A stretch of DNA of 64,000 bases from Naegleria gruberi (taxonomy: Eukaryota). The stretch lies in NCBI GenBank assembly GCA_000004985.1, contig GG738848.1; one strand, 5' to 3'. Numbering within the stretch: the first letter of the stretch is position 1; each line of letters starts with the position of its first letter. Positions 25,742 through 28,250 of this stretch are shown piece by piece. Under the pieces are notes generated by a model, which was given only the letters and a program-made list of their open reading frames with translations, made no database searches and had not been told where the DNA came from. Made by a program: the position numbers and the translations under genes.

Positions 25742-26947
25742 TTATTTATTGAAAGAAGTATTGTCAAATGCAACTTTTGTGTCTTGAAACAAATCTTGAA
25801 GAAATGAATAATCGACATCATTGTCGACCACCTTTTCCACAACTGGGACTGGATTTGAAACATTGATAAATATCAATTTCTTCAGTTTCTCATAGAATTC
25901 AGAAATAATATCAGCAAGAGGTTGGACAAGAACTTGGAAGACACCTGTCAGAATATTCCAAATAAATTTCCAAGTAAATGAAACTGTGGCTGCACCCACT
26001 TTGGTGGATTCAATTAAATATTTGACAAATGATTGCAAATATCCATTAAAATTATAGTTGAATGAATCCTTTTCCTTAAATAGTGAAATAATTTGAGTAA
26101 TTGTGAAATAGGCCAATCCTGCTACAGCTGTGATAAACAAAGATTTGAGATCTAATTTGATTTTCTTCATGGCCAAAGCAGGAACTAGAACTGAAGTAAT
26201 GGCCAGCAATTTTTCATAGCTGAAAGTTTTTAAAAGGTAAACTTCTGAAACAAGTTCCCAAATCTTTCCTAAAAATTGAGAAATGGTTTCGTCTTGAAAA
26301 TCAAATGGACTTGAAATTGGGACTACCTTATCTCCACTACATAGTAATGCCAATTGTTTGAAATTAATCAAATTCTTTGCCTTTTTGAAAAGAGTTTTCA
26401 TATCTGAACGTTGGTCAACTGTGGCATACGGTTGACAGTTCAGTGTCAAGATAGAAATGTCCTTGTCAGGATACTGTTTCTTCATCTTGTAAGCAACTTC
26501 ACAGGCAACGCTTCCTCCAGCTTTATAGCCAGTTACAATAATGTTGTAATTGGTTGTTTTAACTGAAGGCGCAAACTTTTCATAAATCATATTCGAAACT
26601 TGGCTAATAGTTTCCAAATCCTCCTTCTCTTCATTAAATGACTTGCAAACCAAAACGATCAATTGCTTGCCATCAAATTGAATAAATTGTCCAAGAGAAA
26701 TTCTATTCTCAAAGTTACACGAAACGGTCGAATCTGCAATGAGAGGTTTTACGTCTTGTTGCGAAACAACTTGTGCAAGCCATTTCTTTGTTGGAAAATT
26801 GTCAATGTCAATGACTTGCAATTCTTCGAATGGTTGGCTAGTCACGACAGGAATGAGAGATTCTAATGAATGGACCGATTCTAATGGTGTTAGTGATTCT
26901 ACTGATTCGACTGAGGATGTGAACCATCCTGTTAACCAACTTGACAT
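25742..26947 (-). CDS. Lipase class 3 (alpha/beta-hydrolase) domain paralog with a non-canonical nucleophile elbow
   Basis: 401-aa ORF. ...TTNYNIIVTGYKAGGSVACEVAYKM aligns to the lipase_3 core [13 protein letters not shown], with GYKAG in place of GHSLG (Lys at the Ser position; a GGSVA follows). C-terminal amphipathic/hydrophobic region. Confidence 0.55.
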   Translation of the reverse strand: MSSWLTGWFTSSVESVESLTPLESVHSLESLIPVVTSQPFEELQVIDIDNFPTKKWLAQVVSQQDVKPLIADSTVSCNFENRISLGQFIQFDGKQLIVLVCKSFNEEKEDLETISQVSNMIYEKFAPSVKTTNYNIIVTGYKAGGSVACEVAYKMKKQYPDKDISILTLNCQPYATVDQRSDMKTLFKKAKNLINFKQLALLCSGDKVVPISSPFDFQDETISQFLGKIWELVSEVYLLKTFSYEKLLAITSVLVPALAMKKIKLDLKSLFITAVAGLAYFTITQIISLFKEKDSFNYNFNGYLQSFVKYLIESTKVGAATVSFTWKFIWNILTGVFQVLVQPLADIISEFYEKLKKLIFINVSNPVPVVEKVVDNDVDYSFLQDLFQDTKVAFDNTSFNK

Positions 26948-27005
26948 TTTTTTGAAGATTTGAAGCTTGACAGTTGCATTAGAGAATGATTAGTTGTGCT
27001 TCACG

Positions 27006-27085
27006 ATCACGTTTTGATTAATAACCCAAAAAATCTTAAACGTGATAATCATTTTGTTCAAAGTGTCAAATATCAATCACGTTTT
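27006..27085. promoter_or_regulatory. Triplet of AAACGTGAT motifs (mixed orientation, ~35-40 bp spacing) in the 172-bp divergent promoter between the two lipase-3 paralogs
   Basis: atcacgtttt at 27006-27015, aaacgtgat at 27038-27046, atcacgtttt at 27076-27085. Confidence 0.5.
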
Positions 27086-27119
27086 ACATTTTAAATAATT
27101 AATTCGAAAAAAAATAGAA

Positions 27120-28250
27120 ATGACACTCACCAACATTGATATTGAAAATAAAGAGATTTTAAAGTGGCTATGCAAAAGAACAAACTCAATCTATAGCTCA
27201 ACTTTGTTGCCAGAATTGTCAGAACTTCCGTTGAAATCTGGCAGCTTGATATTTCATGATAACAATAATTCAGTATTGGCAGTAGCAGATATATATGATT
27301 CAATAGGATCAGTAGTGGTTACTTGTAAAGGAAGTCAATCAATCTATGACTGGGTGTCAAATTTCACTGAATTTCCAACAACTTCTAATCAAAATTCTAT
27401 TCCTGATTTCATTTACGAGAATGCATTGAAAATTTCACAGAAATTTGATAGAGAATCGCCAAATATTTTCAATAATAAGAAGGTGATTTGTTGTGGGCAT
27501 AGTAGAGGTGCAGGAATTGCTTCTTATTTGGGCTATCATATTGCTTCAAATTCCAAGAACTGTCAAGTGTCTGTTTTGACATTTAGCTCAATTCCATATG
27601 CCAATGATCAATTTAAAACTGCTTTCGACAATGTAATTTACAAAGCTAAGAATATCATTTCAATTCTAGATCCACTTCAAACTTTATGGGTTTCTAGAAA
27701 TATCCCAGGAGAAACTAGAATATTGGAATTCACCTATCCAGGTGCATCAGCAATTGCACTCTTTACCATTCCACTAACAGCATTCGTTAAGGAGATTCAT
27801 TGTCTGTTTGACAAAATTTTCCATTTGCAAGGAATTTCTGAAATATTGGAATGTGCAACATCTTTTGCCTTATTTAAAGGTACAAGTCAATTCTTGTCCT
27901 TTTCTGGACTGGTGACCATGTTTCTTATGGATGTTGGAGTTAATGTATTCCAAGGAAAGTGTCACAAGATGGATTATACACAGCATGTAGTTGGAGGTGG
28001 CGTTGAACCTCTTATTAAGGCAGTTTTTGAGTTGCTGTCTGATGTCAACAACAAGACAACCAACCTGGTGAATTTGATAACTAAGTTTGTGATGGGACCA
28101 TTATTTGGATTGTTGAAGAAACTTTTCGTGAATGTTGTTGATCTGATCGATCAATTATGGAACGCCCTAAAGGAATTTGTGGGACAAGCTGTTAATTTCT
28201 TTAAATCTAGTTTATCTTTGATTTCCTATCATCCAATAGTGCAAAATTAA
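27120..28250 (+). CDS. Lipase class 3 (alpha/beta-hydrolase) domain protein with canonical nucleophile
   Basis: 376-aa ORF. KKVICCGHSRGAGIASYLG matches the GHSxG lipase_3 elbow. C-terminal hydrophobic/amphipathic segment as in the divergent paralog. Confidence 0.6.
   Translation: MTLTNIDIENKEILKWLCKRTNSIYSSTLLPELSELPLKSGSLIFHDNNNSVLAVADIYDSIGSVVVTCKGSQSIYDWVSNFTEFPTTSNQNSIPDFIYENALKISQKFDRESPNIFNNKKVICCGHSRGAGIASYLGYHIASNSKNCQVSVLTFSSIPYANDQFKTAFDNVIYKAKNIISILDPLQTLWVSRNIPGETRILEFTYPGASAIALFTIPLTAFVKEIHCLFDKIFHLQGISEILECATSFALFKGTSQFLSFSGLVTMFLMDVGVNVFQGKCHKMDYTQHVVGGGVEPLIKAVFELLSDVNNKTTNLVNLITKFVMGPLFGLLKKLFVNVVDLIDQLWNALKEFVGQAVNFFKSSLSLISYHPIVQN

Follow-up and report, generated by a model that had tools for sequence, protein, structure and literature searches.

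Two open reading frames (ORFs) that lie head to head in Naegleria gruberi, ORF A on the minus strand and ORF B on the plus strand (Table 1), encode distant relatives of the class 3 lipases. They were analysed within a 64,000-nucleotide stretch of contig GG738848.1 (assembly GCA_000004985.1), referred to here as the window. Taken as a whole, the comparisons make it fairly probable that A is a retained pseudo-enzyme without a catalytic triad, encoded beside a probably active class 3 paralogue, B. In A, a lysine (Lys142) stands where the nucleophile serine of the lipase fold is expected.

A first-pass annotation of the window had noted that the nucleophile elbow of A reads TGYKAGGSVA, which is borne out by the codons of residues 139-148. 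It had offered two readings: that the serine is replaced by lysine, giving a pseudo-enzyme that might serve its neighbour as regulator or scaffold, or that the nucleophile has shifted four residues on, to GGSVA. The alignment of A with B is gapless from the strand preceding the elbow to the strand following it, with IVTGYKAGGSVA on ICCGHSRGAGIA and Lys142 on Ser128 of B. When A alone is compared with the Thermomyces lipase (reference sequence 100% identical to 1dt3/1tib), NYNIIVTGYKAGGSVACEVAYKMKKQYPDKDI is likewise aligned without gaps; Lys142 falls on Ser146 of that enzyme and Ser146 of A on Ala150. In a scan of 13 registers with a 23-residue window, the register that places Lys142 at the nucleophile position scored +40 against the Thermomyces lipase and +27 against B. 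The 12 other registers were all negative, including that of Ser146 (-10 and -8, respectively). The AlphaFold2 models were built from 3-row alignments, and their best parts are the elbow segments, with mean predicted local distance difference test (pLDDT) scores of 54-76 per 10-residue block. In the model of A (block means 59-76), Lys142 is placed between a strand (136-141) and a helix (143-158).

Because the alignment with B, the alignment with the Thermomyces lipase, the register scan and the local model all agree, Lys142 is assigned, by alignment and model, to the nucleophile-serine position of A. Ser146, aligned on Ala150 and inside the predicted helix, is by the same comparisons an ordinary residue of the first helical turn. 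The replacement reading of the first-pass annotation is therefore upheld and the shifted nucleophile is not. Alignment to fungal lipase was also inspected for a canonical serine elsewhere at the correct structural position, an observation fixed beforehand as counting against the replacement, and none was found. A one-base sequencing slip was considered as a source of Lys142 and rejected, as the codon AAA differs at two bases from the AGT of B.

The remaining catalytic elements of A are similarly eroded. Alignment indicates that the oxyanion G-S motif has been lost and that the I-x-D-W segment following it is deleted, while Lys197/Gln198 occupy the position aligned with Asp184 of B. The sole histidine of A is residue 26, and none is conserved with the orthologue fragment described below. 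With no histidine past the elbow, A cannot form a Ser-Asp-His triad, and the GGSVA alternative is also excluded in its canonical form. At the sequence level, no choice of serine would make A a functional Ser-Asp-His hydrolase. The N-terminus of A (residues 1-33, 26850-26947) bears a short imperfect repeat, VESVESLTPLESVHSLESL, in which this histidine lies.

B has the features of a class 3 lipase. It matches Pfam PF01764 (Lipase_3) with 47.4 bits against a gathering cut-off of 22 (E=2.3e-12), residues 66-185 aligning with positions 1-131 of the 140 in the model, and BLASTP against the Thermomyces lipase gives E=2e-4. The GHSRG elbow, described as canonical in the first-pass annotation, was read at residues 126-130, and Ser128 is aligned on Ser146 of the Thermomyces lipase. 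In a moderately confident segment of the AlphaFold model, Ser128 is situated between a strand (121-127) and a helix (129-144). The KGS of residues 70-72 aligns with RGS 81-83 of the Thermomyces lipase; Ser72 falls on Ser83, the oxyanion-hole residue. The triad of that enzyme includes Ser146 and Asp201, and the candidate catalytic acid of B is Asp184, which lies inside the Pfam match. For the base, expected about 50-57 residues past the aspartate, the candidates are His227 (+43 from Asp184) and His235 (+51, in an F-H-L context), in a region that the lipase alignments do not reach and that is modelled with low confidence. As the oxyanion motif, Ser128 in GHSRG and Asp184 are retained, B, a very divergent class 3 lipase by sequence, is probably active as an acyl-ester hydrolase.

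In BLASTP, A and B are 21% identical over 252 amino acids (E=3e-7); restricting the comparison to the N-terminal domains yields E=1.2e-7, with z=11.9 relative to shuffled sequences. A matches Pfam Lipase_3 with 17-18 bits, below the cut-off of 22 and over residues 128-169 only. Since this match is below the cut-off, the class 3 origin of A was established through its homology to B and through profile comparison with hhalign, in which a combined profile of A and B matched the Thermomyces lanuginosus lipase with a probability of 93.6% (E=2.2e-7). When a profile of the two N-terminal domains was searched against the PDB, the best matches were class 3 lipases (5xk2, 6a0w, 2ory and the Thermomyces lipase), and 'vtGykaGa' was aligned with the 'VVGHSLGA' of a class 3 lipase. 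The only hydrolase profiles touched in Pfam scans of A and B were Lipase_3 and, faintly, Abhydrolase_2. By these comparisons A and B are distant paralogues that diverged long ago, within a lineage-specific branch of the Lipase_3 alpha/beta-hydrolase family.

Searches with the single proteins were far less informative. Phmmer with A or B against the PDB returned noise only (FSP1, a tau repeat and an RTX toxin fragment), and word-seeded homologue searches with A, with B and with the B lipase domain at E up to 10 gave no match. Exact look-ups of A, B and the ABC transporter of the window in public collections found no record, and the NCBIfam family scan gave no match. Scans of metagenome and viral collections also gave no match, and there is thus no sign of a viral origin.

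Both proteins carry a C-terminal half of about 155-165 amino acids that is predicted to be helical. The first-pass annotation had described a hydrophobic or amphipathic C-terminal segment in each, which it took as a hint of membrane or lipid-droplet association; hydropathy and the predicted helices agree with the description of the segment. Only residues 271-289 of A attain borderline transmembrane hydropathy (Kyte-Doolittle 1.72), and peripheral or amphipathic association of the C-terminal halves with lipid is plausible from hydropathy and the models. The two halves are collinear and alike in length and composition. Pfam scans of them detected no domain, and no EDS1_EP even at E up to 10. An exhaustive search found a single fragment related to the C-terminal half of A, and word-seeded searches, the only kind made with that of B, found none. 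The least hydrophobic part of the C-terminal half of B is a loop at residues 272-312 (27930-28055), FQGKCHKMDYTQHVVGGGVEP, which weakly and repeatedly matches a tau microtubule-binding repeat, KCGSKDNIKHVPGGG (E=0.046), probably by chance. Within the loop, a Lys, an Asp and a Gly are the same in A, B and the fragment related to A.

That fragment, P0001, is a 125-amino-acid C-terminal piece, and was the one match to A when 1.84 billion representative proteins were searched exhaustively with HMMER. It derives from a 2.9-kb contig, L001, in the Logan assembly of SRR29240419, which encodes an orthologue of A from just past the elbow to the stop codon. This orthologue is 62% identical to A across residues 153-258; in the C-terminal half the figure is about 40%. 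By the Nei-Gojobori method, the rough ratio of nonsynonymous to synonymous substitution rates (dN/dS) is ~0.16 for residues 153-258 (dN 0.26, dS 1.59), ~0.53 for residues 267-388 (dN 0.50, dS 0.95) and ~0.32 overall. Residues 153-258 include a 33-residue block with 30 identities to the orthologue, and the block that is conserved best, PISSPFDFQDETISQFLGKIWELVSEVYLLKT, occurs in the A lineage only and has no equivalent in B. These values, from one partial orthologue, indicate that A is held by purifying selection, and A would therefore have a non-catalytic function.

The first 27 nucleotides of L001 (1-27) are a low-complexity run coding for KPKPKPKPK where A has KMKKQYPD, which probably explains the break in the assembly at that point. 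The downstream gene of L001 (1259-2935) encodes repeated modules, possibly discoidin-like by eye, and a linker rich in Q and P; nothing corresponding to this gene lies beside A in the window.

The first-pass annotation had placed the two ORFs head to head around a common promoter with an ACGTGAT triplet. Both ORFs are present in the ORF listing at the positions and on the strands it gave, and three copies of the heptamer were located in the 172-bp spacer. ACGTGAT occurs 11 times in the window, where about 4 copies are expected, and none of 100 shuffles reached 11; the Poisson chance of at least three copies in 172 bp is ~4e-6. The shared core extends past the heptamer, to (a/g)AAACGTGAT(t). 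This arrangement suggests that A and B are transcribed divergently from one short promoter and, as the promoter is shared, that they are co-regulated.

A second AAACGTGAT triplet is found at 18594-18680, directly upstream of a plus-strand ORF at 18700; its copies, at 18594, 18633 and 18674, are in plus-strand orientation at a spacing of about 40 bp. The triplet probably lies in the actual spacer between two other divergent genes; on the minus strand, the ORF listed at 17804-18667 is likely to start at a downstream Met near 18557. A single copy (16265-16271) lies about 60 bp upstream of the ORF at 16332-17675. With three, three and one copies in these three regions, seven of the 11 copies in the window are promoter-located. 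The core includes CACGTT, an E-box-like half-site. This element, repeated in two of the window's divergent promoters, may be a genuine cis-regulatory site in the organism.

Table 1. Features of the divergent gene pair and its spacer. Nucleotide positions are those of the 64,000-nucleotide window; residues are numbered within each protein.
Feature	Residues	Nucleotides	Strand	Description and basis
ORF A	1-401	25742-26947	minus	401 aa; class-3-lipase-like, probable pseudo-enzyme; ORF listing, Lipase_3 match below cut-off, homology to B and Thermomyces lipase
A, N-terminal alpha/beta-hydrolase remnant	~90-235		minus	Homology to B and Thermomyces lipase
A, degenerate nucleophile elbow	139-148	26504-26533	minus	TGYKAGGSVA; Lys142 = AAA, 26522-26524; Ser146, 26510-26512
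A, best-conserved block	210-243	26219-26320	minus	PISSPFDFQDETISQFLGKIWELVSEVYLLKTF; compared with the L001 orthologue; not in B
A, C-terminal half	236-401	25745-26242	minus	Predicted all-helical, hydrophobic/amphipathic; hydropathy, low-confidence model
Divergent intergenic spacer		26948-27119		172 bp; three AAACGTGAT-type motifs: 27006-27012 (-), 27040-27046 (+), 27076-27082 (-)
ORF B	1-376	27120-28250	plus	376 aa; divergent class 3 lipase by sequence; Pfam, BLASTP, hhalign
B, nucleophile elbow	126-130	27495-27509	plus	GHSRG; Ser128 = AGT, 27501-27503; aligned on GHSLG/Ser146 of Thermomyces lipase
B, Asp184, candidate catalytic acid	184	27669-27671	plus	ILDPL; +56 from Ser128 (Thermomyces lipase: +55); inside Pfam match; sequence basis only
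B, C-terminal half	~222-376	27783-28247	plus	Helical, hydrophobic; hydropathy, low-confidence model

The pair may have arisen by duplication of an ancestral class 3 lipase gene, the copies now being transcribed, on this account, away from each other from one short promoter. By sequence, A has kept the strand-turn-helix of the nucleophile elbow while losing the serine, the canonical aspartate, the histidine and the oxyanion motif. By analogy with SAG101/EDS1 and ABHD5 (see below), the most likely role of A would be in binding lipid or membrane, or as a partner or regulator of a lipase such as the probably co-regulated B. Such a role would act through the hydrophobic, helical C-terminal half carried by both proteins.

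Several observations weigh against a retained pseudo-enzyme beside an active lipase. Overall the two structural models are of low quality, with mean pLDDT of 38 and 41, and are unusable for triad geometry. With these models Foldseek returned nothing below E=1e-3; the weak top matches of the low-confidence A model were class 3 lipases and EDS1/PAD4, and those of the B model were noise. The C-terminal halves of A and B are only marginally homologous (E=0.013, z=2.8). The sole orthologue contig, L001, begins about 11 residues past the elbow and does not cover the position of Lys142, and the dN/dS values are rough because dS is near saturation. In addition, the orthologue has a one-base frameshift in a AAAATTTT run (~318-330), through either assembly error or real decay. 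This frameshift, together with the loss of all catalytic residues and the sub-threshold Pfam match, is what could be expected if A were a decaying pseudogene or a non-functional ORF. That is very improbable: A is an intact ORF of 401 codons in AT-rich DNA, its divergent promoter is a proper one and contains a repeated motif, and residues 153-258, with their highly conserved block, have the low dN/dS given above.

No alignment places the catalytic histidine of B, and B itself might be inactive. The sequence of B past Asp184 is hydrophobic, unlike that of known lipases, the word-seeded searches gave no homologue of B, and EDS1 is a precedent for a protein that keeps a triad dispensable for its function. 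The whole A/B clade could then be a non-catalytic, lipase-derived family with a structural or lipid-binding role, and the GHSRG of B a relic. This is unlikely, as long divergence has left B with its oxyanion motif, a GxSxG elbow and an aspartate at canonical spacing. The context of His235 also resembles the H-L-x-Y-F of fungal lipases. Conversely, A might still be an enzyme, with Ser146 as a shifted nucleophile, perhaps in a Ser-Lys dyad with Lys142, or with Lys142 itself as nucleophile or base. GGSVA matches the G-x-S-x-A pattern, Lys142 and Ser146 are spaced i, i+4, one helical turn apart, and Ser-Lys dyads occur in unrelated hydrolases. A further point is Asp206 of A (GDKVVP), which is kept in the orthologue (EDKIVP); lying 8-9 residues past the canonical acid position, it could be a displaced acid. 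This reading is very unlikely in view of the negative scores of the Ser146 register beside those for Lys142, and the location of Ser146 on Ala150, in the helix and off the apex of the elbow. A also lacks any histidine after residue 26 and the oxyanion G-S, and we know of no alpha/beta-hydrolase with a Ser-Lys dyad of this kind. There is likewise only a slender chance of the more far-reaching proposals: that A and B are the two subunits, one triad-bearing and one triad-less, of a lipase-derived module that is obligately heteromeric, each subunit having a helical C-terminal domain and both being under a common promoter, as an independent protist counterpart of the plant signalling pair EDS1-SAG101/PAD4, or that A has an unprecedented Lys or Ser-Lys elbow chemistry.

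The window around the pair is eukaryotic nuclear DNA, AT-rich (~30-38% GC throughout) and intron-poor. Its genes include those for an ABC transporter, a 1749-amino-acid PAS adenylate cyclase, and B-box/NHL, leucine-rich repeat (LRR), F-box/WD and WH2 proteins. Introns interrupt at least two genes of the window: a G-alpha gene consists of three ORF pieces and a dCache-cyclase gene of two. The G-alpha gene (6804-8422, plus strand) has a candidate AT-rich GT...AG intron of about 100 nt near 7185-7287; being in three pieces it must contain at least two spliceosomal introns, so that the genome is intron-poor and not intron-free. Two nucleotide cyclases are linked to sensor domains. The dCache-cyclase (60359-62672, plus strand) extends over two overlapping ORFs, through an intron or a frameshift, and the 1749-amino-acid protein (36477-41726, minus strand) has TmcB-type TPR, PAS and cyclase domains.

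The stretch that immediately follows the 3' end of ORF A is otherwise poor in ORFs and contains genes for tRNA-Ile(AAT) (25330-25402, minus strand) and tRNA-Ser(GCT) (25568-25648, plus strand). A dispersed 5S rRNA gene (2710-2832, minus strand; Rfam, 69 bits) is flanked by protein-coding genes on both sides. The ORF at 16332-17675 (plus strand, 447 amino acids) has no Pfam match; by eye it contains the GTPase-like motifs SGKSSLLN (P-loop), WDLPG (DxxG) and TKID (N/TKxD). At 32001-34000 the sense strand is strongly A-rich (AT skew 0.345), in and past an 852-amino-acid WH2-motif ORF (30998-33556), which suggests low-complexity coding sequence.

If the proposed reading of A and B is correct, the pair is a lineage-specific case of hydrolase duplication in which one copy is non-catalytic and yet retained, and annotation of A as a lipase is inappropriate. 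Physical linkage and probable co-regulation would make a partner or regulator relation easy to test. The pair would leave the present understanding of class 3 lipases and pseudo-enzymes unchanged, as alpha/beta-hydrolases without a nucleophile, such as SAG101 and ABHD5, are already well known and common.

Among characterized proteins, the fungal class 3 lipases are the closest in sequence, with identities to A and B of only ~21-24% over ~80-115 residues. B shares with them (1TIB/1DT3, the Rhizomucor and Rhizopus enzymes and the Aspergillus diacylglycerol lipase 5XK2) the R/K-G-S motif, GHSxG, the P-x-x-x-N strand and an aspartate at +55/56. A shares the gapless strand-elbow-helix segment and differs in being without the serine, the canonical aspartate and the histidine. 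Both proteins differ from the fungal enzymes in that no signal peptide or disulfide-rich N-terminal region was seen in their sequences, and in carrying the additional helical, hydrophobic C-terminal half.

In layout only, A and B resemble the plant proteins EDS1, PAD4 and SAG101, which combine a class 3 lipase-like domain at the N-terminus with a C-terminal domain made up entirely of helices. Of these, SAG101 has no S-D-H triad and acts as a non-catalytic partner of the triad-bearing EDS1; in the A/B pair, too, one paralogue is triad-less. The EP domain that marks the EDS1 family was not detected in A or B by Pfam scan, which places them outside it. To our knowledge, that family is considered to be confined to seed plants.

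A functional parallel is offered by ABHD5 (CGI-58), which arose by duplication of a phospholipase, has no catalytic serine and is retained as a membrane- or droplet-binding activator of PNPLA2/ATGL at the surface of lipid droplets. A is likewise a duplicate of a hydrolase that appears to have lost its nucleophile serine, and a regulatory role of this kind is proposed as a functional model for A. The two are not members of one subfamily, since profile comparison relates A to Lipase_3 and not to ABHD4/5. They would also differ in their clients, as the lipase activated by ABHD5 is an unrelated patatin-like enzyme, whereas B, the proposed partner of A, is its own paralogue.

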